Under the pieces are notes generated by a model. That model had not been told where the DNA came from. It ran no database searches and saw nothing but the letters and a program-made list of their open reading frames with translations. A stretch of 33,522 bases of DNA from a bacterium (GTDB lineage Bacteria > Patescibacteriota > Minisyncoccia > Phycocordibacterales > Phycocordibacteraceae), in the NCBI GenBank assembly GCA_021781865.1, contig JAJXVZ010000002.1, forward strand, positions 1 to 33,522, read 5' to 3'. Made by a program: the position numbers and the translations under genes. Positions 1 to 33,522 of this stretch are shown in pieces (within the stretch, counting starts at the first letter, position 1; the number at the start of each line of letters is the position of its first letter).

Positions 1-903
1 TATCGTGAGGTCACCTGGATTGACCTCGAGCAGCCGACTGAGGAGGAAATACGGGATACTGCTCATGAGTTTTCAATCGGTGAACGCCTCGAGCAAGAAC
101 TGCTTTCCCCAACCCCGACCTCGCTCGTAGCACGAGAAGACGAGATGACGCTTCTGGTACTCCATTTCCCTGCGCACAGCGCGGAAGATGATGCGACGAA
201 AAATCAGGAAATTGATTTCATCGTCGGCGATCACTTTATCCTTACGGTACGCTACGAGGTCGTGGCGCCCCTGCATCATCTGCAAAAGCTTCTCGAGACA
301 CAGAGACTCGTCTTGAAGCGTGTCGCTCTTACCACTGACGTCTTACTCGAACTTCTTTTCGTGCATTTATATACCTCAGTGCATGATCACACAAACCATG
401 TCGTAAATCGCCTTGAACGCATAGAACAAGACATGTTTGACGGTTCCGAACGGAAAACGATACTCTCGATTCTACAAGTCAGTCGCGAATTTTTGCATAT
501 GGAAATAGCGCTGGCGGACCAAGAGGAACCGCTTGATCGTTTCCTTGCGGCGCTTGCAGAACGAAATTCATTTGGAACATCTTTTCTAGAACGCACGGAA
601 CGCATACGCACCGAGCGCATCCAAATCGCGCGTCTCGTTGAGACGCACCGTGCAATTGCGACCGAATTACGCGAAACTAACATCGCGCTACTTGAATCGC
701 GCCAAAACGAAATTATGAAAACGCTTACCATCATCACGTTCAGTGTTCTTCCTCTCGAGCTCATCGCTCTCATTTTCGGTATGCACATGCTCGGAACGCC
801 TCTTGAGCAAAATCCAAATGCCTTTTGGATCATTGTGGCAATCATGTTCGGTCTTGTCAGCTTTATGGTGCTTTTTTTCGCACGAAAGCGATGGATTTTT
901 TAA
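1..903 (+). CDS. corA: CorA-family divalent metal ion transporter, 5' end outside the window
   Basis: Frame 1 is open from base 1 through the listed ATG at 145 to the stop at 903. The C-terminal TM pair (TLTIITFSVLPLELIALIFGMHM and FWIIVAIMFGLVSFMVLFF) followed by KRWIF matches the CorA architecture. The signature position reads GMH rather than GMN. Confidence 0.8.
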   Translation, partial: YREVTWIDLEQPTEEEIRDTAHEFSIGERLEQELLSPTPTSLVAREDEMTLLVLHFPAHSAEDDATKNQEIDFIVGDHFILTVRYEVVAPLHHLQKLLETQRLVLKRVALTTDVLLELLFVHLYTSVHDHTNHVVNRLERIEQDMFDGSERKTILSILQVSREFLHMEIALADQEEPLDRFLAALAERNSFGTSFLERTERIRTERIQIARLVETHRAIATELRETNIALLESRQNEIMKTLTIITFSVLPLELIALIFGMHMLGTPLEQNPNAFWIIVAIMFGLVSFMVLFFARKRWIF

Positions 904-906
904 TGT

Positions 907-2367
907 ATGAAATGGCTCGCCAAAATCCTTAAAAAAGGAAGTATTATACATACTCAGTATCCACCTGTATTTTTTACAAATACGCTCTCGGGCCGGAAAG
1001 AGGTTTTTGTGCCACAAAAACCTGGTATCGTACTCCTTTATTCCTGCGGACCGACCGTATATGCTCGCACACACATCGGAAATCTTCGTACTTTCGTGTT
1101 CGCGGATACTATCGCACGCACACTTGCCGCAGCCGGATATCGTGTGCATCGCGTCATAAATATAACGGATGTCGGTCACCTCGTCGGCGATGGCGATTTT
1201 GGGGAAGACAAGGTGGCGGTTAGTGCCGCACGCGAGCACCTGACACCAGAAACAATCGCAAATCGCTATACAAAACTTTTTCTTGAAGACCTGGACGATC
1301 TTTCCGTCGACACGAGCGATATTCAATTTCCCCGAGCAACAAAATACATCAAAGAACAGATAGCACTTGCCAAAACCCTTGAGGAAAAAGGCCTTGCGTA
1401 TCGCCTTGCGGACGGTCTTTACTTCGATACGGAGAAATTCCCCGGTTATGGAAAACTTGGGGGGCTTTCCAGTGAGGAGCTTGAAGCTGGCGCACGTGTC
1501 AGAGTCGTTAAAGGGAAACGTCATCCTGCCGACTTTGTCCTTTGGCGAACCGCAAAACCAAACGATCTTCAACAATGGAATAGCCCGTGGGGTCGCGGCA
1601 ACCCCGGTTGGCATATCGAATGCTCTGCGATGGTGCGCGCTTTGCTTGGACAAGAAATTGATATTCATACCGGTGGGGAGGATCTTGCACACATACATCA
1701 CAATAACGAGATCGCTCAATCGGAGTCAGTAGGTGGCCGCACTTTTGTCCATTATTGGATGCATAGCGCTTTCCTCACCATGCGCGGTGAAAAGGCATCG
1801 AAATCGCTCGGCAACGTCGTGTATCTTTCCGACATCGTCGAGAAAGGATTCCATCCACTTTCCTTGCGTTATTTCTTCTTCCAGGCACAGTATCGCACAC
1901 CGCTCTCCTTTTCCTGGGACGCACTTGCAGGTGCCGCCGGCGCACTCGATCGACTTTGGAAAATATCTCGCGTCATCGCACGCGAATCAAAACGCAAAAG
2001 TGCTGCTTCCGCAGTCCGTGATCAATTCCTGGCTACTATGCGTGACGACCTTGCGACCCCGCAAGCACTCGGCATCCTCTGGAGTGTTCTAAAAAGTGAA
2101 GAATACGCGCCTGAAGAAAAATGGGGACTTCTGGAGGATGCACAAGCACACCTCGGTCTCTCACTTCTCAACCCACCCCAACAATCCAATCCCCTCGAAG
2201 AGAAAGACGTGCCGAAAGAGATATGGGACCTGCTTACACGCCGGGAGGCAGCACGTGCCTCGAAAGATTTTAAAAAGGCCGACCATATCCGTAATGCTAT
2301 CGAGCACAGTGGATATCGTGTGGACGACGGTCCGGATGGGCCTGTGTTAACTCAAGAGACTCTTTGA
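907..2367 (+). CDS. cysS: Cysteinyl-tRNA synthetase
   Basis: Class I motifs HIGN (HIGH) and KASKS (KMSKS) are present, along with NTLSGRKEVF near the N-terminus and a WHIECSAM motif. The length of 486 aa fits CysRS. Confidence 0.9.
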   Translation: MKWLAKILKKGSIIHTQYPPVFFTNTLSGRKEVFVPQKPGIVLLYSCGPTVYARTHIGNLRTFVFADTIARTLAAAGYRVHRVINITDVGHLVGDGDFGEDKVAVSAAREHLTPETIANRYTKLFLEDLDDLSVDTSDIQFPRATKYIKEQIALAKTLEEKGLAYRLADGLYFDTEKFPGYGKLGGLSSEELEAGARVRVVKGKRHPADFVLWRTAKPNDLQQWNSPWGRGNPGWHIECSAMVRALLGQEIDIHTGGEDLAHIHHNNEIAQSESVGGRTFVHYWMHSAFLTMRGEKASKSLGNVVYLSDIVEKGFHPLSLRYFFFQAQYRTPLSFSWDALAGAAGALDRLWKISRVIARESKRKSAASAVRDQFLATMRDDLATPQALGILWSVLKSEEYAPEEKWGLLEDAQAHLGLSLLNPPQQSNPLEEKDVPKEIWDLLTRREAARASKDFKKADHIRNAIEHSGYRVDDGPDGPVLTQETL

Positions 2368-2379
2368 TACAATTGGTGA

Positions 2380-3744
2380 ATGACGACATCCGATCGTGTT
2401 CCCCCGCAGTCCCTTGAATCTGAGCGCGCACTCCTTGGTGCCATTCTCTTAAAACCAGACGCCATCCATGATGTGTCGGATCTTATTCGCGCAGATTCTT
2501 TCTATGCAGAGAAACATCGACTTATATTCAGCGTTATGCGCGAGCTTGCCGAGCGTGGCGAACCGATTGACCTCCTTTCTCTCTCCGAGCGACTACAGAA
2601 CCAAGGTTTGCTTGAACGTGGCGGTGGCCGTAGCTATCTGGCAGAGCTTATCGGATCAGCTCCAGCGCCTGGAAATTTCTCGCATTACGCAGAACTTGTC
2701 TCACGCAAGTTCCTCATGCGCTCCCTCATTGAGGCTGCATCTACTATTACCGAATCCGCATATGATGAGGCGCGAGAAACAATGGAGGTGCTCGATGAAG
2801 CTGAAAAAAGCATATACGCAATAGGTAATGCTTCCGCGGCGCACAAATTCACTGCCATTGGCGATAAAATTCACGAGGCATGGGATCGTATCGAAGCTCT
2901 TTCAAAGAAAGAAGATGGCATTCGTGGTGTTCCCTCAGGTTTCCCTTCTCTCGATAATCTTCTCTCAGGCTTCCACCCTTCCGATCTTGTCATTATAGCG
3001 GCCCGCCCCTCAATGGGAAAAACTTCGCTCGCCTTGGACATCGCACGAAATGCCGCTGTACGTCATAATGTTGCCGTCGGTATTTTCTCGCTCGAAATGA
3101 GTTCGGAACAACTTATCGATCGCATGCTTGCCGCGGAGTCTTTCGTCAATTCATGGAAATTGCGCACGGGCCAGGTGAGAGAAGAGGAGGATTTCGGCCG
3201 CATACGCGATGCGCTTGAATCGCTTTCAAAAGCCCCCATTTTCATAGACGATAAGCCGGGCAATAATATCCTCGCGATGCGCGCGGTCGCACGGAGACTG
3301 AAACGGGAGCGCGGTATTGGACTCATCGTCGTGGATTATCTTCAGCTCATGACTCCGACCTCGGCTAAATCTTCCGATTCCCTTGTCCAGCAGGTCACCG
3401 AAATATCCCGTTCGCTTAAATCGCTCGCGCGCGAACTTGCGGTACCAGTGATTGCGCTTTCACAACTTTCGCGTGCAGTTGAGCAACGTGGCGGCAGGCC
3501 GCGTTTGAGCGATCTACGCGATTCCGGGAGTATCGAGCAAGATGCCGATGTCGTTATGTTCATTCATCGCGAAGACAAGCGCAATCCGGAAAATAGCCAG
3601 CCAAATATTGCAGAAATTCTTATCGAGAAACACCGTAATGGCCCGACAGGTAAAACTGAACTCTATTTCGATGAAAAACGCGCCACATTCCAGCCAGTAG
3701 ATACGAGCGGCTACGGTGACCTCGCAGGTGAGTTCTCTAACTAA
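2380..3744 (+). CDS. dnaB: Replicative DNA helicase DnaB
   Basis: The N-terminal PPQSLESERALLGAILL box, Walker A AARPSMGKTS, LIVVDYLQLM and ALSQLSRAVE motifs are all typical of DnaB. No intein-sized insertion is present. Confidence 0.9.
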   Translation: MTTSDRVPPQSLESERALLGAILLKPDAIHDVSDLIRADSFYAEKHRLIFSVMRELAERGEPIDLLSLSERLQNQGLLERGGGRSYLAELIGSAPAPGNFSHYAELVSRKFLMRSLIEAASTITESAYDEARETMEVLDEAEKSIYAIGNASAAHKFTAIGDKIHEAWDRIEALSKKEDGIRGVPSGFPSLDNLLSGFHPSDLVIIAARPSMGKTSLALDIARNAAVRHNVAVGIFSLEMSSEQLIDRMLAAESFVNSWKLRTGQVREEEDFGRIRDALESLSKAPIFIDDKPGNNILAMRAVARRLKRERGIGLIVVDYLQLMTPTSAKSSDSLVQQVTEISRSLKSLARELAVPVIALSQLSRAVEQRGGRPRLSDLRDSGSIEQDADVVMFIHREDKRNPENSQPNIAEILIEKHRNGPTGKTELYFDEKRATFQPVDTSGYGDLAGEFSN

Positions 3745-4346
3745 TGGATCATATTGACGAACTTGCTCGTGCTCTAGCCCGCTTGCCAGGGATTGGCCCC
3801 CGACAAGGTAAACGTTTTGTGTATTACTTACTTTCCGCGCCAACCTCAGAACGTACGAAACTCGCGGAACTTATCTTGTCGCTTGGTAAAGATGTTCGCC
3901 AATGTTCCGAATGCTTCCGTTTTCATAACGAAACTACTACAAATGTCTGCAGATATTGTTCTGATCACGGACGAGATGACGCAATTTTGATGTTTGTTGA
4001 GAAAGATCAAGACCTTTCCGCAATAGAACGTGCGGGTACGTATCATGGGCGTTATTTCGTACTCGGCGGCGTACTCACCCTGTCGGGTAAAGGTGCAATC
4101 CGTGAGAAGGAATTATTACAGATGGTTGAAAAACGTCTGGGGAACGGCCTGAAGGAAGTGGTACTCGCGCTTTCGGCAACAAGCGAAGGCGAGCACACGG
4201 CAGACCGCGTGCGTGCATTGCTCGCGCCATACCGCGATCATTTGAAGATTTCTGAACTCGGACGTGGCCTCGCGACCGGCAGCGAGCTTGAGTATTCCGA
4301 TGCACAAACGTTGCGTGCCGCTCTTATAAACCGCAGAGAGGCTTAA
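3744..4346 (+). CDS. recR: Recombination protein RecR
   Basis: It has an LPGIGPRQGKRF helix-hairpin-helix, a C4 zinc finger (CSECFRF...CRYC) and a Toprim-like C-terminal half. The start overlaps the dnaB stop by 1 nt. Confidence 0.9.
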   Translation: MDHIDELARALARLPGIGPRQGKRFVYYLLSAPTSERTKLAELILSLGKDVRQCSECFRFHNETTTNVCRYCSDHGRDDAILMFVEKDQDLSAIERAGTYHGRYFVLGGVLTLSGKGAIREKELLQMVEKRLGNGLKEVVLALSATSEGEHTADRVRALLAPYRDHLKISELGRGLATGSELEYSDAQTLRAALINRREA

Positions 4347-5692
4347 CGATCTTGAATAAAAGTCAATGCGCGGCCCTTAAGCGAAGCGCGGCCGGTACGA
4401 CCGATGCGGTGAACATAATCCTCATATGTGGAAGGAAGGTCATAATTGATGACGTGTGAGACCGCTGGAATATCCAATCCACGCGCCGCAACATCAGTGG
4501 CAACAAGCACGTTCACCTTTCCTGCCTTGAGAGCCTCCAATGCGCGCAAACGCGCTCCATGCGTCTTATTACCATGAATGCTCTCCGCGTGAATGTGAAG
4601 ACGCGAAAGCGCCTTAGCGAGCTTTTCTACGCCGAACTTGGTACGGCCAAATACAAGTACTCGACTGAACTCCCGATCTTTAAGAAGATTCGCGAGTACC
4701 TCGAATTTATCTTTTCCGCGAGGAATACGAACAACATCTTGATCAATGCTGCTCGGCGTATCGCGCATCTTTACTGAAATGATCACGGGGCTCGTGAGGA
4801 AATCACCGATGAGCCGCTCAATATCTTTCGACATTGTCGCGGAAAAGAAGAGCGTATGACGCTCTTTGCGCATTTTTGAAAGAATTATGCGCATGTCATC
4901 AATAAAACCCATGTCGAGCATACGATCCGCTTCATCGAGAACGACTGTACCAAAACCGGAAAGATCAAGCGCACGACGTTCCATCAAATCCTTGAGTCGT
5001 CCGGGCGTACCAATAACGAATGCCGGATCATTGCGAAGCATCGATATTTGAGGACCGATATTCGCGCCACCAACCGCGACCATGCCACGGAATCCGAGAC
5101 CACGTGCAAATCCTGCAAGTTCTTTTTCTATCTGCACCGCAAGTTCTCTGGTCGGTGCCATGATAAGAACACGCTCACCTTTCTGCTTCACTACTTTGTC
5201 GATAAGCGGAATGAGAAATGCGGCAGTCTTCCCCGTTCCTGTCTGAGCGAGACCGACAACGTCTTGGCCGAGCAAAGCATGTGGAATTGCTTTATCTTGA
5301 ATTGGCGTTGGAAGTTCGTATTTTCTCGCAGCGATATTTTTTTTCAGATGATCGTTAATATCGAAATCGGAAAACTTATGCTCAGGAACAAATACTGGTT
5401 CTTCAGTGCTGACAACCGCCTTATTCATGAATTTTGAAATTTCTGCTTCAGTCTCACCGAAAGAACCAAATCCGCCACGACGCGCGCCTGCGTGTCCATG
5501 ACTACCATATCCACCGCGTCCATAATTACCACGATCTGCAGGACGGCTCCCATTGCGTCTGCTGAATGAGCTGTCTCGACGAGATCCATAAGAAGGACGG
5601 GCGGAGTACTTCCCCCGTTGGTATGAGGAAGAATGTACACTACTGTGCGAGTCACTATTAGATGATTGATGATTCCAGCGCCCTATTTGCAT
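4343..5692 (-). CDS. DEAD-box ATP-dependent RNA helicase with an N-terminal Arg/Gly/Ser-rich low-complexity region
   Basis: Motifs AQTGTGKT, DEAD, SAT and HRIGRTGR are present. The first ~85 aa are RGG/SR-rich. An internal Met (MNKAVV) is an alternative start. Confidence 0.85.
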   Translation of the reverse strand: MQIGRWNHQSSNSDSHSSVHSSSYQRGKYSARPSYGSRRDSSFSRRNGSRPADRGNYGRGGYGSHGHAGARRGGFGSFGETEAEISKFMNKAVVSTEEPVFVPEHKFSDFDINDHLKKNIAARKYELPTPIQDKAIPHALLGQDVVGLAQTGTGKTAAFLIPLIDKVVKQKGERVLIMAPTRELAVQIEKELAGFARGLGFRGMVAVGGANIGPQISMLRNDPAFVIGTPGRLKDLMERRALDLSGFGTVVLDEADRMLDMGFIDDMRIILSKMRKERHTLFFSATMSKDIERLIGDFLTSPVIISVKMRDTPSSIDQDVVRIPRGKDKFEVLANLLKDREFSRVLVFGRTKFGVEKLAKALSRLHIHAESIHGNKTHGARLRALEALKAGKVNVLVATDVAARGLDIPAVSHVINYDLPSTYEDYVHRIGRTGRASLKGRALTFIQDR

Positions 5693-28487: not shown

Positions 28488-28509
28488 ATCATTGCAGGCA
28501 ATGATTTTT
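28488..28509. terminator. Hairpin at the boundary between the recombinase ORF and the PEBP gene
   Basis: The hairpin is ATCATTG-cagg-CAATGAT, with TTTTT on the plus strand. On the minus strand it directly follows the recombinase stop (28508-28510). Confidence 0.3.
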
Positions 28510-30079
28510 AAGTTAAGATATCAGAATCGTCCATTCGGGCGACACGATTCCGGGATAGCTCAATGGTAGAGCAGCGCCCTGTTAAGGCGTTGGTTGCAGG
28601 TTCGAGTCCTGCTCCCGGAGCAGCAATAAAACTCACCTCATTTTCTGAGAAATTTTGGCGTGCGACGCGGAGCGTCGCCCAATGTTCTACGGGGGTTTGT
28701 TCAACTTTTCGATTTCGCAAAGTCAGGTTCGAGCCGAAGATTTTTTGGAGGGAGGATTTTTTGGAGGGGAGGTCGAAGTTTTTGGCTATTTCGTCCAGCA
28801 TTGAAGCGTGGTTTACCCACTCCTGCATGGGTTCGAGCCACGCACAGGCGTTCTGTTCAAGACGGGCTATCTGCTCCTCGAACGACTTACGATCCGATAT
28901 GAGAGCGCGACGGCGTTCAAGGTAGTCGGCACGCTCGATGTCTTGGGCTATGTAGAGGTCGGTAAGGCGGTCGAGTTGGCGGGAGATGTCCTGTACTTTC
29001 TCACGCAATTCTTGAACGAACGCTTCGGTTTCGCGCGAGGTCTTATCCTTGTCCTCGTCCATAAGTCGGCGTAGCTCCTCCGCCCACAATGGCGGGAGAT
29101 CGTAGCTGGAAAGTATCGTATTGAGTTGAGGCGATAGTGCTTCCTCTCTGACATACGGCTCGGCACAGACGCCTTTCTTCTTCGTACAGCGATAGTAGGT
29201 ATGGCCTTTCTGTATCTCGCCCGTAATCATGCAACCGCACTCACCGCAACGTAGAAGCCCGCACAGGGCTTTGGGTTGGGTGGTAGCTTTCTGCGGGTGG
29301 CCTCGCTCTATAATTACTTTCTGCACTTTGTCGAACAGACGTTTTTCGATGATGGGAGTATGCCGTCCTTCGTGCAATTCTCCGCCGTAGGTAAAGAGGC
29401 CGCAGTAAAAGGAGTTGGTAAGGATAAACCGCACGCGGTCTTTGTGGAAAGGTAAGCCGCCGAAACTCTTGACGCCATTCTCAAACATAAATGTAGAGAT
29501 GTCTTCAAGACGGCGGTCGCCTTTGGCGTATAGCAGAAAGGCGGCTCGTATCACTTTCGATTTCTTCCGGTCTATAACAATCGTCTTAGACCGCACATCG
29601 TTTAGGTAGCCGACAGGCGCACTGCTCGGAAACTCGCCACGCTTAACTTTGAGACGTAGGCCACGCTTCACGTTTGCGCTTAGGTCGCGGATAAATTGGT
29701 TAGCCATGCCGAACTCGACGGACATCATCAGGACGTTATCGGTCGGGTAGTGGTTGCGGTCGTGGGTGCGGATATGCTTGATCGTCCCCTCCTGTAGAAA
29801 CCAACTGATCTGCCCGCCGTCCACTGGATTGCGTGCTAAGCGATCTAACTTCCAACAGACAATGCCCTGTGCCTCGCCGCGCTGTATGCGCTTCATCATG
29901 TCGTTGAACACAGGACGGCCGGGCATCTTGGCGGTACGCTTCTCCACAAACTCGGCGGCAACTTCTAAACCTTCCTGTTTTGCTAAAACCCGAAGCTCGG
30001 CTAGCTGGGCTTCAATAGAGAGGACTTGTTTGTCCTCGACATCGGTGGATTTGCGGGCGTAGAGGAAGTAGCTGAGCAT
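28508..30079 (-). CDS. Large serine recombinase
   Basis: I placed the start at the Met at 30079 (MLSYFLYARKSTDVEDKQVLSIEAQ), which gives the resolvase catalytic-Ser motif. It also has a recombinase domain, a Cys-rich zinc ribbon (CGLLRCGECGCMITGE...YYRCTKKKGVC) and a long coiled-coil. The last ~36 codons are antisense to tRNA-Asn. Confidence 0.9.
   Translation of the reverse strand: MLSYFLYARKSTDVEDKQVLSIEAQLAELRVLAKQEGLEVAAEFVEKRTAKMPGRPVFNDMMKRIQRGEAQGIVCWKLDRLARNPVDGGQISWFLQEGTIKHIRTHDRNHYPTDNVLMMSVEFGMANQFIRDLSANVKRGLRLKVKRGEFPSSAPVGYLNDVRSKTIVIDRKKSKVIRAAFLLYAKGDRRLEDISTFMFENGVKSFGGLPFHKDRVRFILTNSFYCGLFTYGGELHEGRHTPIIEKRLFDKVQKVIIERGHPQKATTQPKALCGLLRCGECGCMITGEIQKGHTYYRCTKKKGVCAEPYVREEALSPQLNTILSSYDLPPLWAEELRRLMDEDKDKTSRETEAFVQELREKVQDISRQLDRLTDLYIAQDIERADYLERRRALISDRKSFEEQIARLEQNACAWLEPMQEWVNHASMLDEIAKNFDLPSKKSSLQKIFGSNLTLRNRKVEQTPVEHWATLRVARQNFSENEVSFIAAPGAGLEPATNALTGRCSTIELSRNRVARMDDSDILT
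28549..28620 (+). tRNA. tRNA-Asn (anticodon GUU)
   Basis: Hand-folded cloverleaf. The parts are acceptor TCCGGGA/TCCCGGA, D arm GCTC-AATGGTA-GAGC, anticodon stem GCGCC/GGCGT with loop CTGTTAA, variable loop TGGTT, T arm GCAGG-TTCGAGT-CCTGC, and discriminator G. CCA is not encoded. Confidence 0.9.
28619..28778. repeat. Left copy of a ~160-bp inverted repeat (IR-L), starting at the last 2 nt of tRNA-Asn
   Basis: It is the reverse complement of 33232-33400. Bases 28619-28730 are identical to rc(33289-33400), and 28743-28778 are identical to rc(33232-33267). A 12-nt versus 21-nt variable patch lies between these blocks. Confidence 0.9.
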
Positions 30080-30097
30080 GTTTCCATAATAGCACAA

Positions 30098-30171
30098 ACA
30101 GGACAAAACAGGACAAGTGATTGTGGATGACAAAAACGGACAAAAGTGTATCCTTACAGGTGATGGACAAA
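30098..30171. promoter_or_regulatory. Divergent control region with iterated GGACAA(A) motifs
   Basis: GGACAA(A/G) occurs at 30101, 30111, 30138 and 30165, with a GATGACAAAA variant at 30126. On the minus strand, TATTAT (30091-30086) lies 6 nt upstream of the recombinase ATG. Confidence 0.35.
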
Positions 30172-30339
30172 GATAGACTCCTTACTGCACAGGAAGTCGC
30201 AAAGAAATTACGTGTGAGTGAACGCTCAGTTATGCGCTACATCAAAGCAAAGAAACTTCGTGCCACAAAAATCGGTCAGTGGCGTATCAAAGAAATTGAT
30301 ATCATTAAATTCCTCGGAGCCTATAGTAATAAAAGATAA
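30127..30339 (+). CDS. Excisionase-type (HTH_17/MerR-like) DNA-binding protein
   Basis: LLTAQEVAKKLRVSERSVMRYIKAKKLRATKIGQWRIKEIDIIKFL matches the excisionase-family HTH pattern. The start could be TTG 30121, ATG 30127 or ATG 30163. Confidence 0.75.
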   Translation: MTKTDKSVSLQVMDKDRLLTAQEVAKKLRVSERSVMRYIKAKKLRATKIGQWRIKEIDIIKFLGAYSNKR

Positions 30340-30344
30340 TCGTT

Positions 30345-31415
30345 ATGTCTCCGACAAAAATAAAAGTTATTGATTTGTTCTGTGGTATAGGAGGTCTGAC
30401 CCACGGACTCATTAAAGAAGGTCTTGATGTTGTCGCTGGCATTGACAATGATTCAAGTTGCAAATTCGGCTATGAATACAATAATAAGGCTCAGTTCATT
30501 GATATAGATATTCTTGAAGTTACAGCCGATAGGATCAACCAACTTTTTGGATCAGAGAAAGGCACGATTCGTGTCCTTGCGGGCTGTGCTCCTTGCCAAC
30601 CTTTTTCAAAACTGAATCTTAACGCTATTACAGAAAAACAATTAGAACCGTTAGGAAAGTTTGCCCAATTGATTGCTGAGACTCAGCCGGATATTGTCTC
30701 AATGGAAAACGTGAGTGATCTTGCCATTAAAAATAAATATCCGGCGTTCGAGAGTTTTTTAAAAGTTCTTACTGATAATAATTATCACTACAAGTACGAG
30801 GTTGTTGATGTCTCAGAGTTTGGCGTACCACAGAAAAGACGGAGACTCGTTTTACTTGCGTCAAAATTTGGTGAAATTCAATTAATAAAAAGAACTCACA
30901 AAGATAAGCGGGTTACTGTCCGAGACGTTATTAAACATTTAGAGCCAATAAAAAACGGTGAGGTAAGCAAGAGAGACCCACTACATCGATCAAGGAAACT
31001 TGCCCCGATTAACCTAAAAAGGATAAAAGCCACTCCGCATGATGGAGGTAGTTCTAATAGTTGGAGTAAGGATTTAATCTTAGATTGTCATAAAAAAAAG
31101 TCGGGTAAAACATACCGTCACACTGTTTATGGACGTATGAGTTGGGATCAACCTGCTCCAACTATGACGACACAGTGTGTAGGATTAGGAAATGGCAGAT
31201 ATGGTCACCCTACGCAAAATCGGGCGATAAGCTTGAGAGAAGCGGCAATATTTCAGACATTCCCAAAGGATTATCAATTCCTTCCATCCTCGGAGCCAAT
31301 TGTAATAAATAAAGTTGCAAAATTTATCGGGAATGCTGTACCGGTAAGACTCGGATCAGTTATTGGCAAGAGTATAAAGGAACACTTGAGCAAAAATTAT
31401 GAAGGAAGAACATAA
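30345..31415 (+). CDS. DNA (cytosine-5)-methyltransferase
   Basis: C5-MTase motifs are I DLFCGIGG, IV PCQPFS, VI MENV, VIII QKRRRLVLLAS, IX RAISLREAAIFQTFP and X GNAVPV. Confidence 0.92.
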   Translation: MSPTKIKVIDLFCGIGGLTHGLIKEGLDVVAGIDNDSSCKFGYEYNNKAQFIDIDILEVTADRINQLFGSEKGTIRVLAGCAPCQPFSKLNLNAITEKQLEPLGKFAQLIAETQPDIVSMENVSDLAIKNKYPAFESFLKVLTDNNYHYKYEVVDVSEFGVPQKRRRLVLLASKFGEIQLIKRTHKDKRVTVRDVIKHLEPIKNGEVSKRDPLHRSRKLAPINLKRIKATPHDGGSSNSWSKDLILDCHKKKSGKTYRHTVYGRMSWDQPAPTMTTQCVGLGNGRYGHPTQNRAISLREAAIFQTFPKDYQFLPSSEPIVINKVAKFIGNAVPVRLGSVIGKSIKEHLSKNYEGRT

Positions 31416-33132
31416 GCCTTTTGAATTTGAATTCTCTCTTGAAGTTCTCAATCATTTAGGCAGGGGTCTATATAGAAGTTTTGCAACTGTTATTGCGGAG
31501 GCAGTTTCAAATGCCTGGGACGCAGAAGCGAAAGAAGTTAAAATCACTCTCGACAAGACAGGTCTTATTGTTGAAGACAACGGAAAAGGCATGGATGCTA
31601 ACGATTTTAGATGTAAGTTCCTAAAAGTTGGATACTCCAGAAGGCAGGACGAAACCAATAAATCAAAGCGAAATGTAATTGGTAGGAAGGGCATCGGAAA
31701 GTTAGCAATGCTGTCTATTTCTGAAAAGGTAACTATCGTCTCAAAGAAACAAGAATCAGAAATAACCGGTGGAAAAATTAACAACCCTAAATTAGATAAA
31801 GAGATTAGAAAGGACGGCAAGTATGCTCTCGACAACTTATCAAACCAAGAGAAGACCAAACTTTTTGGCAAGCCTAATACTAAGAAGACAGGTACGAAAA
31901 TACTTTTTGAGAAAATTAAAACCAACCTCAATAGCGAAGATATGATTCGCAAATATCTTGCAACTCAATTCAATTTTATTTTTAGCATAAAAAAGGGCGA
32001 CTCGTTTACTATCAAAGTAAATAATAAACCCGTTAGCATTAAGGACTTGCAAGAGTTGAATGACAACACTCAGTTCATATGGTACGTCGGCAAAAAAGAT
32101 AAAAGGTTTGGAGATAGATTTAAGAGTCTTGATAAGGAAAAGGTTATTAAAAATACAAACTTTGTGTTTGAGGGTAAGACCATTGAGATTAAAGGCTTTA
32201 TCGCTTCCGTGAAAAGGTCAGGCCAGTTGCTTCTTAGGGGTTCGAACGGTGATTTCAAAGCAAGTGTTAATCTCTTCACAAACGGCAGATTAAGACAGGA
32301 AAGTCTTTTTGAGGAGATCGCAAAGAAAACACTTACGGAGGAATATCTTTATGGCGAAATTCACGTTGATGGTTTTGAGGACAGTGAAAACGATCGATTC
32401 ACGAGTTCACGCGAAGGGATAATCAAAGATGATCCTCTTTACCAAAAGTTTCTAGAGGAACTTGAAAAAGTGTTAGTAGTTATAATTCAAGACTGGACTC
32501 CCTGGAGAAAGGAACTCAAACAAGATGGGGATATTGATCAAGACTCAAGACCTGGTTATGAAGTAAGGATGGAAGAGAGTCGTAACCGGCGTGAAAAAGA
32601 CTTCAGAGATAAAATAAATGAGAATATAAGTGATAAAGCTACTAAAGACAGTTTAAAGGAGAAGCTAAAATCTCTTTCATATAAAAATACCTTGATTTAT
32701 CAAGATTTGTTTATTTTGGAGAATATTCTTAGAGAATATATTAAACTTAAAAAAGTAGAAGAAAATTACTTTGACACTAAAATAGCCGACGAAAAGAATA
32801 TTATTGATCGTATTAAGCAAGTCAGAGGAGACAGAAGGGCAGACGAAGCAACGCATGCGCTGAAAGGGAAAATTGTAAAAGAAGAACACTTTCTAAACTA
32901 TGCAGATTTGTATGATCTTGGGGAAATAATCGATCTTTATTTGGAAAAGAATAAAAAGAACCCAACTCCTAAGAAATATAAGAAAGAATTGTCTGCTGAC
33001 GCTAAAGAAATCAATCCAGTTAGAAATCCAATCATGCATACAAACGAGATAACCGATCATGTATTGGTATGGGATAAGATTAAAAACCTCATTGATTATA
33101 TTGAAAGGATAAAGGATAAGAAAGTAAAATAA
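31399..33132 (+). CDS. GHKL (HATPase_c_3/MORC-like) ATPase with a C-terminal HEPN-like domain
   Basis: Bergerat-fold motifs are EAVSNAWDA (31498-31524), DNGKGM (31576-31593) and GRKGIGKLA. The C-terminal helical domain has ILENILREYI, LYDLGEIIDLY and VRNPIMH (Rx4H, 33022-33039). It overlaps the MTase gene by 17 nt. Confidence 0.75.
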   Translation: MKEEHKPFEFEFSLEVLNHLGRGLYRSFATVIAEAVSNAWDAEAKEVKITLDKTGLIVEDNGKGMDANDFRCKFLKVGYSRRQDETNKSKRNVIGRKGIGKLAMLSISEKVTIVSKKQESEITGGKINNPKLDKEIRKDGKYALDNLSNQEKTKLFGKPNTKKTGTKILFEKIKTNLNSEDMIRKYLATQFNFIFSIKKGDSFTIKVNNKPVSIKDLQELNDNTQFIWYVGKKDKRFGDRFKSLDKEKVIKNTNFVFEGKTIEIKGFIASVKRSGQLLLRGSNGDFKASVNLFTNGRLRQESLFEEIAKKTLTEEYLYGEIHVDGFEDSENDRFTSSREGIIKDDPLYQKFLEELEKVLVVIIQDWTPWRKELKQDGDIDQDSRPGYEVRMEESRNRREKDFRDKINENISDKATKDSLKEKLKSLSYKNTLIYQDLFILENILREYIKLKKVEENYFDTKIADEKNIIDRIKQVRGDRRADEATHALKGKIVKEEHFLNYADLYDLGEIIDLYLEKNKKNPTPKKYKKELSADAKEINPVRNPIMHTNEITDHVLVWDKIKNLIDYIERIKDKKVK

Positions 33133-33190
33133 GAATCAGCATCGGGAGTTTTGTCGATCTGAAAGATGGCGAAAAATAAATTGCCTATAA

Positions 33191-33451
33191 CACGCGCACG
33201 GGAAGGGCGGGGCAAGTGTTATATCTAGCGTCTTCGACCTCCCCTCCAAAAAATCCTCCCTCCAAAAGTCTTCGGCTTTCGTATTTTTGAACCTGACTTT
33301 GCGAAATCGAAAAGTTGAACAAACCCCCGTAGAACATTGGGCGACGCTCCGCGTCGCACGCCAAAATTTCTCAGAAAATGAGGTGAGTTTTATTGCTGCT
33401 TGTTTGTACGACCCAATACGAACGCATTTTACCCGAAACGGAGGCCTCTAG
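33191..33451 (+). other. ATG-less in-frame copy of the recombinase C-terminal coding segment with a different tail
   Basis: The frame is open from 33191 to TAG at 33449-33451. It translates to FDLPSKKSSLQKSSAFVFLNLTLRNRKVEQTPVEHWATLRVARQNFSENEVSFIAA plus CLYDPIRTHFTRNGGL. The recombinase has ...QKIFGSNLTLRNRK...FIAA plus a tRNA-antisense tail. Confidence 0.6.
33232..33400. repeat. Right copy of the ~160-bp inverted repeat (IR-R)
   Basis: It is the reverse complement of 28619-28778, with one 9-nt frame-preserving indel patch at 33268-33288. Confidence 0.9.
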
Positions 33452-33522
33452 GGTAGTCATTCGGGGGTAGTTTACCCCTACATTCACCCCTACATTCGAC
33501 CTATACCGGAATGTAGGGGTAG

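Follow-up and report, generated by a model that had tools for sequence, protein, structure and literature searches.

We analyzed a stretch of 33,522 nucleotides (the window) from a bacterium of the phylum Patescibacteriota (GenBank assembly GCA_021781865.1, contig JAJXVZ010000002.1, forward strand), in which a gene for a 577-residue protein follows a gene for a C5 cytosine DNA methyltransferase. Comparisons with relatives showed that the two genes form a compact, horizontally mobile module derived from a type II restriction-modification (R-M) system, and that the second gene is its 'R' half. The comparisons also showed that the protein has retained a GHKL ATPase and an Hsp90-like middle module found in the restriction enzymes BbrUII and HgiDII, while the PD-(D/E)xK-like C-terminal domain of these enzymes has been replaced by a putative Swt1-like HEPN domain. 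We refer to the protein as the GHKL-HEPN protein. As a whole, the data are best explained by an R-M-derived module in which the GHKL-HEPN protein would act as an RNase effector controlled by DNA methylation. The RNase output and the methylation control are both predictions, and we give this explanation about an even chance of being right.

Scaffold and partner of the GHKL-HEPN protein

The N-terminus of the GHKL-HEPN protein is, as judged by motifs, profile and fold, a GHKL ATPase, and ATP hydrolysis is predicted for it. The Pfam profile HATPase_c_3 matched the Bergerat-fold core with a score of 80.1 bits (cutoff, 25 bits). The three Bergerat motifs were found as E34/N38/D41 in AEAVSNAWDA (motif I), D60-x-G62-x-G64 in DNGKGM (motif II), and G95-x-x-G98-x-G100 in GRKGIGKLA (motif III), and the key residues of all three motifs were invariant or at least 90% conserved in an alignment of 41 homologs with 58-91% identity. 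Full-length homologs with 57-91% identity numbered more than 100 and were spread over many phyla. In the full-length AlphaFold model, which had a predicted local distance difference test score (pLDDT) of 72.9, the first ~400-450 residues superposed on the N-terminal and middle domains of Hsp90/TRAP1 in a Foldseek search (E~2e-12), and the ATPase module of SMCHD1 was a further match to the N-terminal part of the same model. The NCBIfam model for the N-terminal ATP-binding region of sacsin also matched the window at positions 31486-31737 (residues 30-113), with an E-value of 7e-11 and a score of 42 bits against a cutoff of 50.

The initial annotation of this DNA had described the open reading frame, the Bergerat motifs of a GHKL ATPase, the RNPIMH motif and a helical C-terminus, all of which were borne out at the positions given in Table 1. 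It had also described the middle of the protein as a Lys-rich region with no obvious motif, and this description had to be abandoned. The middle region is a conserved domain that lies within the part aligned to the BbrUII/HgiDII family (see below) and within the Hsp90/TRAP1 fold match, and it is rich in residues that are invariant among the 41 homologs, such as N291-L-F-x-N-x-R-L-R-Q300 and D332-R-F-T-S-S-R-E339. A weak match to the Pfam family Smg4_UPF3, seen in 20 of the 41 homologs, was also located in this region.

We then compared the protein with restriction enzymes of the same scaffold. Residues 8-417 aligned to positions 1-405 of the 659-position NCBIfam family NF050001 (BbrUII/HgiDII restriction enzymes) with an E-value of 8.2e-87, and the score of 292 bits against the family cutoff of 550 left the GHKL-HEPN protein outside the full-length family. 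The REase_II profiles of PADLOC likewise matched residues 8-377. True members of NF050001 from Burkholderia glumae (668 residues, 650 bits) and Halobaculum (677 residues, 800 bits) covered positions 1-659 of the model. Both are plasmid-borne, each downstream of a C5 methyltransferase, and the N-terminal ~400 residues of the GHKL-HEPN protein shared 31-34% identity with these HgiDII-type members. Since the N-terminal 400 residues are homologous to BbrUII/HgiDII enzymes that follow a homologous C5 methyltransferase, the GHKL-HEPN gene is placed in the R position, where the initial annotation had expected a restriction nuclease. In public records, homologs of the protein at present carry no more specific name than 'ATP-binding protein' or 'hypothetical protein'.

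The last ~260-270 residues of the HgiDII-type proteins share the pattern hPWLLDPxW...RLD(I/L)...VV(E/D)LKRP and gave weak matches to SduA_C (E=0.006) and HSDR_N (E=0.007); we read this C-terminal domain as a probable PD-(D/E)xK-type, Shedu-like nuclease core. The D...(E/D)LK-type domain was absent from the GHKL-HEPN protein, whose own C-terminal domain was unrelated to it in an hhalign comparison (0.3%). The ENxxR and RNx3H motifs of the GHKL-HEPN protein were in turn absent from the HgiDII-type proteins. When the GHKL-HEPN protein and the 41 homologs were scanned, no other nuclease, as a motif or a Pfam match, was found in the GHKL-HEPN protein.

The methyltransferase gene overlaps the start of the GHKL-HEPN gene by 17 nucleotides at its stop codon. 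A homologous C5 methyltransferase was found upstream of the GHKL gene in all of the 27 related loci, which came from Patescibacteria, Chloroflexota, Bdellovibrionota, Alpha- and Gammaproteobacteria, Nitrospirota, Armatimonadota, haloarchaea, Burkholderia, and Neisseria, and the two genes abutted in 26 of them. No third conserved gene was found near the pair among the related loci examined, and the DNA similarity of the window to its relatives was limited to about 30353-33130, that is, to the pair itself. In the non-abutting locus (L024; positions 380-5674 in a metagenome-assembled genome of the Nitrospirota), the remains of a second, different GHKL gene separate the two: its fragments, at 1413-2165 and 2220-3101 (27% identity), come after the methyltransferase, and the intact GHKL-HEPN gene starts only ~2.5 kb further on, at 3941-5674. 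Possibly, this locus shows one effector type in the course of being replaced by another.

The methyltransferase as a whole shared 45-47% identity with the methyltransferases of HgiDII-type modules, in the same gene order. The comparison showed an enzyme that is, as far as sequence and gene order go, orthologous in layout to the M.HgiDII/M.BbrUII-type enzymes. Between HEPN-type and HgiDII-type modules, its target-recognition domain was conserved to the same degree as the catalytic core (46-55% identity with no more than 6 gaps), which suggests that the methyltransferases of the two types have identical or closely related target sites. The same conservation hints that the shared N-terminal module, and not the swapped domain, would couple to the methylation state. 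M.HgiDII is an experimentally characterized m5C methyltransferase for GTCGAC, and BbrUII is a characterized type II system that restricts transformation (PMC5867850; bioRxiv 10.1101/2023.09.16.557782). GTCGAC occurs 4 times in the window against ~8 expected arithmetically for a random hexamer, a count that is uninformative.

Table 1. Positions of the features discussed in the text, numbered from the first nucleotide of the window
Feature	Position	Strand	Evidence or remarks
Large serine recombinase	28508..30133	-	Pfam Resolvase, Recombinase, Zn_ribbon_recom
tRNA-Asn	28549-28621	+	ARAGORN
HTH_17 (excisionase-like) gene, mobility module	30121..30339	+	Pfam HTH_17, E=3.3e-14
C5 cytosine DNA methyltransferase, M partner	30345..31415	+	Pfam DNA_methylase, E=2.6e-56; PADLOC MTase_II, E=4e-83
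Whole GHKL-middle-HEPN open reading frame	31399..33132	+	577 residues and stop codon; ATG start
Bergerat-fold ATP-binding core, residues 27-122	31477..31764	+	Pfam HATPase_c_3, E=2e-22
Middle (transducer/S5-like) domain, residues ~123-385	31765..32553	+	Common to BbrUII/HgiDII restriction enzymes
C-terminal all-helical domain, residues 405-577, read as a divergent Swt1-like HEPN domain	32611..33129	+	PDC-M34B, HEPN_Swt1, hhalign
E441-N-I-L-R445, putative HEPN Ex3[K/R] motif	32719..32733	+	E, N, and R invariant in three alignments
R542-N-P-I-M-H547, putative HEPN Rx4H motif, R followed by a polar residue	33022..33039	+	R, N, and H invariant
Inverted repeat, right arm	33232..33400	.	Partner 28619-28778; 112 + 36 nucleotides, 100% complementary

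The C-terminal domain and its HEPN relatives

HEPN domains are four-helix up-down bundles with an insert between helices 2 and 3 and with their active-site residues juxtaposed (PMC3710099). The C-terminal ~170 residues of the GHKL-HEPN protein were predicted to be all-helical, and helices and motifs followed each other in an order compatible with a HEPN domain. The putative HEPN core covers about residues 432-570, with a large insert between the helix that carries Ex3R and the RNx3H motif. Active HEPN domains carry Rx4-6H with N, D, or H after the R, plus an upstream Ex3[K/R] (Anantharaman et al. 2013, PMC3710099). Both signatures were present in the GHKL-HEPN family, as R542-N543-x3-H547 and E441-x3-R445. 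In shuffles of the GHKL-HEPN protein, Rx4H arose by chance in 31% and R[NDH]x3H in 5%. Since a bare Rx4H motif is unremarkable by this measure, the case for a HEPN domain rests on conservation and on profile evidence.

In the alignments down to 21-28% identity, the sole invariant columns were E441, N442, R445, L507, P540, R542, N543, and H547. A distant subclade from Nitrospirota, Armatimonadota, and Gammaproteobacteria carried R-D-x3-H, a variant that is allowed for HEPN domains. The conservation of Rx4H among homologs, which the initial annotation had named as one of the checks of its proposal, was upheld.

Profile searches pointed to the Swt1-like clade. HEPN_Swt1 (PF18731) was the only recurring non-GHKL Pfam match that mapped to the C-terminal domain; it was found in 24 of the 41 homologs at E<=1, the best E-value being 1.5e-4. 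For the window protein itself the match had an E-value of 0.11 (13.3 bits) with the full-length protein and 0.034 (14.9 bits) with the C-terminal part. The PADLOC profile PDC-M34B matched residues 392-553 with an E-value of 6.2e-8, a similarity at the level of the domain only.

A C-terminal-only profile was also used in an exhaustive HMMER search of 1.84 billion representative proteins. The search gave 37 matches, nearly all of them GHKL proteins of 558-616 residues with the domain at the C-terminus. It also found P0159 (E=7.7e-5) and P0161 (E=2e-4, both E-values referring to the whole library), which exceeded the Pfam threshold of HEPN_Swt1 with 56.7 and 33.4 bits, respectively. These two proteins and P0167 are standalone relatives and strong members of PDC-M34B. 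A further match, P0147 (3570 residues, repetitive, with 21 matched stretches), was regarded as low-complexity noise. A word-indexed homolog search with the C-terminal domain gave nothing beyond fragments of the same family.

When a C-terminal profile built from GHKL proteins only was compared with a profile of Swt1-HEPN proteins by hhalign, the match reached a probability of 96.8% (E=2.6e-10) over 114 columns, with ENxxR and RNxxxH in register. The controls gave 0.2% (reversed profile) and 0.3% (HgiDII-type C-terminus). The Swt1 profile was shallow (5 sequences), because a word-indexed homolog search with P0159 gave only 4 proteins. At the level of sequence, the identification of the C-terminal domain as a divergent HEPN homolog of the Swt1-like clade is well supported, and the resemblance to Swt1-like HEPN domains noted in the initial annotation was strengthened by this match and by the invariance of both HEPN signatures.

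Proposed function, rival explanations and known systems

GHKL modules such as those of Hsp90, MutL, and MORC are ATP-driven dimerizing switches. In the mechanism that we propose, the shared N-terminal module of the GHKL-HEPN protein would be an ATP-dependent dimerizing switch that senses DNA without the cognate methylation. Activation would bring together or unlock two HEPN domains, so that a composite, metal-independent RNase site is formed as in other HEPN enzymes. This site would cleave cellular and/or phage RNA, and the outcome would be growth arrest or abortive infection, not DNA restriction. The methyltransferase would prevent self-activation and protect the host, and the pair could double as an addiction cassette. 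An RNA-directed output is proposed because HEPN catalysis uses the 2'-OH of RNA and forms 2',3'-cyclic phosphate ends (PMC3710099).

Disrupted copies of the module were found in relatives. In a Celeribacter locus (L009, 1675-5092), an IS1380 insertion splits the GHKL-HEPN gene and the methyltransferase is intact. In L026 (4001-5458), a premature stop codon lies ahead of the RxxxxH motif in the GHKL-HEPN gene, and the methyltransferase reading frame is again intact. In a Neisseria locus (L008, 3965-5644), both genes are disrupted, and frameshifts occur in the GHKL gene. Because it is repeatedly disrupted in relatives, the GHKL-HEPN gene is possibly harmful alone, and the recurrent inactivation hints at toxicity of the gene on its own. 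As a separate observation, a protein of 158 residues (P0164) has the methyltransferase motif I (FCGAGG) joined directly to the HEPN domain and looks like a deletion derivative.

Several results weigh against a methylation-controlled RNase effector. The structure search suggested in the initial annotation gave nothing significant for the C-terminal part. The models were moderate, with a pLDDT of 73 for the full-length protein and, for the C-terminal domain, a pLDDT of 74 and a predicted template modeling score (pTM) of 0.66. The RNx3H segment had a pLDDT of <50, and a Foldseek search of the PDB and BFVD with the model of the C-terminal domain gave no match with E<1, to HEPN or to any other fold. 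A sequence-profile search of the PDB with the C-terminal alignment gave only noise (E>0.1), and the window protein, with 13-15 bits, stays under the HEPN_Swt1 gathering score of 27.5 bits. We identified no domain for reading specific DNA sequences in the GHKL-HEPN protein, and site recognition in the HgiDII-type enzymes might be located in the nuclease domain that was lost. Finally, an ATP requirement of HgiDII/BbrUII cleavage was not confirmed from the literature consulted.

Since no DNA-reading domain was found and the trigger is the main uncertainty, a PrrC-like model remains a serious rival, which we consider unlikely. According to this model, the HEPN RNase would be held latent through contact with the cognate methyltransferase and freed when a phage factor inhibits or sequesters the methyltransferase, and the GHKL protein would not read DNA methylation at all. 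The 17-nucleotide overlap of the two genes suggests translational coupling and co-assembly, and a DNA-reading domain is not evident, since the N-terminal and middle regions fold like Hsp90. The text of Anantharaman et al. (2013, PMC3710099) proposes paraMORC-Ymh proteins as functional analogs of PrrC/RloC, and type I R-M systems lie near the pair in two loci (L001 and L002). The PrrC and RloC anticodon nucleases resemble the GHKL-HEPN protein, as it is proposed to act, in having an NTPase with a C-terminal HEPN RNase domain, a tie to R-M systems and the logic of abortive infection (PMC3710099). However, their NTPase is ABC/Rad50-like and not GHKL, and their place is beside a complete type I R-M system, whereas the GHKL-HEPN protein replaces the restriction nuclease. 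PrrC guards a complete R-M system with its own DNase, and the module of methyltransferase and GHKL-HEPN protein is without a DNase. The N-terminal module, moreover, comes from enzymes for which unmethylated DNA is the necessary target, and the conserved target-recognition domain of the methyltransferase suggests that site-specific methylation still matters.

It is improbable that the C-terminal domain is non-catalytic and serves in dimerization or in RNA or nucleotide binding, with the protein being a MutL/MORC-like accessory ATPase dependent on an unlinked nuclease, or having a regulatory role. Hsp90 and MutL dimerize constitutively through their C-terminal domains, and the low model confidence at the RNx3H motif would fit such a role. 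Non-catalytic HEPN domains that act as binders do exist (PMC3710099). However, very few residues stay invariant from 91% to 21% identity and the predicted catalytic ones belong to them, no third conserved gene was found near the module, and the recurrent gene disruption suggests a GHKL-HEPN gene that is harmful alone.

Quite improbable, too, is a genuine DNA restriction endonuclease, in which the HEPN-like domain or an unrecognized site elsewhere in the protein would cleave unmethylated DNA as HgiDII and BbrUII do. The position, the N-terminal scaffold and the methyltransferase partner are the same as in proven GTCGAC restriction systems, and PADLOC calls the N-terminal part REase_II, but the PD-(D/E)xK-like domain is absent and no other nuclease motif or Pfam match was found. 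In addition, all characterized HEPN enzymes, within the 2013 review (PMC3710099) and the further literature searched, are RNases, and their metal-independent mechanism needs the 2'-OH. The REase_II label, which comes from the N-terminal match, may be wrong about the substrate. The least probable of the readings is that the HEPN-like domain was recruited as the DNA-cleaving or DNA-nicking domain of a methylation-sensitive, ATP-dependent type II enzyme at GTCGAC-like sites, which would make it the first HEPN-fold DNase and a new catalytic fold of restriction endonucleases.

Among known systems, the BbrUII/HgiDII enzymes have the homologous GHKL and middle module, are preceded by a C5 methyltransferase and spread on mobile DNA in the same way. 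R.HgiDII was described as a GHKL domain with a C-terminal domain that was left unassigned (Orlowski & Bujnicki 2008, PMC2441816). In contrast to these enzymes, the GHKL-HEPN protein lacks their PD-(D/E)xK/Shedu-like C-terminus and has the unrelated HEPN domain instead.

The initial annotation had overstated the novelty of the design. R.NmeAIP, a 'restriction' protein with a GHKL domain and Hypoth_Ymh, was noted in 2008 (PMC2441816), and the text of the 2013 analysis classes Ymh as HEPN, describes its fusion to paraMORC GHKL ATPases in R-M neighborhoods and proposes the fusions as PrrC/RloC-like RNase effectors (Anantharaman et al. 2013, PMC3710099). We found this type in the Neisseria locus L008, where a protein with HATPase_c_3 followed by Hypoth_Ymh (PF09509; E=3e-25) is encoded downstream of a C5 methyltransferase. 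Its N-terminal module shared 27% identity with the GHKL-HEPN protein (E=3e-17 among the fetched loci and 1e-12 in a plasmid collection). In both types, a C5 methyltransferase precedes a GHKL-middle protein with a C-terminal HEPN domain that carries RNPxxH. Unlike the paraMORC-Ymh fusions, neither the GHKL-HEPN protein nor any of its 41 homologs matched PF09509, and in hhalign the C-terminal domain reached only 0.8% with Neisseria Ymh, with the motif alone aligned. Since the HEPN families differ between the Ymh and the Swt1-like fusions, independent fusions are implied. One scaffold is thus found, as judged from these assignments, with any of three effectors at its C-terminus: PD-(D/E)xK-like, Ymh-HEPN, and Swt1-HEPN.

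The C-terminal domain aligned with Swt1-like HEPN (PF18731)/PDC-M34B proteins from ENxLR to RNxxxH. These relatives either stand alone as short proteins or carry other N-termini; in the GHKL-HEPN protein, the domain is instead fused to the GHKL scaffold. Among the rows listed in the 2013 table (PMC3710099), which give many fusions of Swt1-like HEPN domains, no GHKL partner appears. In eukaryotic sacsin, Hsp90-like GHKL domains likewise occur together with a HEPN domain at the C-terminus, a parallel architecture, but sacsin is a giant multidomain protein with another HEPN family and without a methyltransferase partner. Our literature searches found no paper on the GHKL-HEPN (Swt1-type) family or on PDC-M34, nothing specific on HEPN_Swt1 (PF18731), and no experiment on any GHKL-HEPN protein. 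The design of a C5 methyltransferase with a GHKL protein and a C-terminal HEPN domain is not new; the Swt1-type HEPN domain on the GHKL scaffold is a new variant.

That HEPN domains in R-M systems act as suicidal RNases was a proposal of comparative genomics in 2013 (PMC3710099). The module described here offers a minimal case, with two genes in ~2.8 kb and nothing else conserved, and a natural control, since the characterized HgiDII/BbrUII systems join a DNase-type domain to this scaffold and have a methyltransferase whose target-recognition domain is similar. The question whether DNA methylation status licenses an RNA-degrading, abortive-infection response is thereby made testable. If the RNase effector is confirmed, the line between restriction-modification and abortive infection would be blurred, and a function would be given to the PDC-M34B/Swt1-like HEPN family, which has so far been a candidate only.

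Mobile surroundings of the module

In many unrelated hosts, serine recombinase or resolvase genes adjoin the pair of methyltransferase and GHKL genes in varying orientation (the window, L001, L002-L004, L005, L009, L014, and L015), and in L001 and L002 type I R-M systems are adjacent to it. Apparently, the pair moves within defense islands as a cassette associated with recombinases. A neighboring type I R-M system was rejected as a requirement of the module, since the window and most loci lack one.

Within the window, the segment that holds the pair is low in GC content (0.35-0.40 against about 0.48-0.50), and the GC content of the recombinase gene is host-like. The drop in GC content (window ~30000-33132) begins at the HTH and methyltransferase genes and not at the tRNA gene. 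Given the position of this drop and the DNA similarity confined to the pair, the cassette apparently arrived independently of the recombinase. The HTH_17 gene was not counted in the conserved pair because the DNA similarity to relatives begins only at ~30353. As a candidate for an R-M controller protein it was rejected, since it lies outside the conserved cassette.

The arms of a perfect inverted repeat enclose the recombinase, HTH, methyltransferase, and GHKL-HEPN genes. Of the two arms, the left one consists of the 3' coding end of the recombinase gene and the last 3 nucleotides of the tRNA-Asn gene. Since the sequences that flank the two arms differ, the repeat is not a simple assembly fold-back. 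It could mark where a mobile or invertible unit ends, or be what is left of a second recombinase copy. The recombinase reading frame, as listed, runs at its 3' end antisense through the tRNA-Asn gene, and its TTG start overlaps the HTH reading frame. The true start is probably an internal methionine (MLSYFLYARKS...), and the true C-terminus is uncertain.

A promoter and terminator scan of 29900-33522 gave counts at or under the shuffle expectation. In the same region, a 23-nucleotide near-repeat (TCCTCGGAGCC..GTAATAAA; 21 of 23 positions identical) occurs at window positions 30311-30333, just upstream of the methyltransferase start, and at 31287-31309, ~90 nucleotides upstream of the GHKL start. 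Chance could account for it, or it may be a recombination scar or a regulatory element that is shared.

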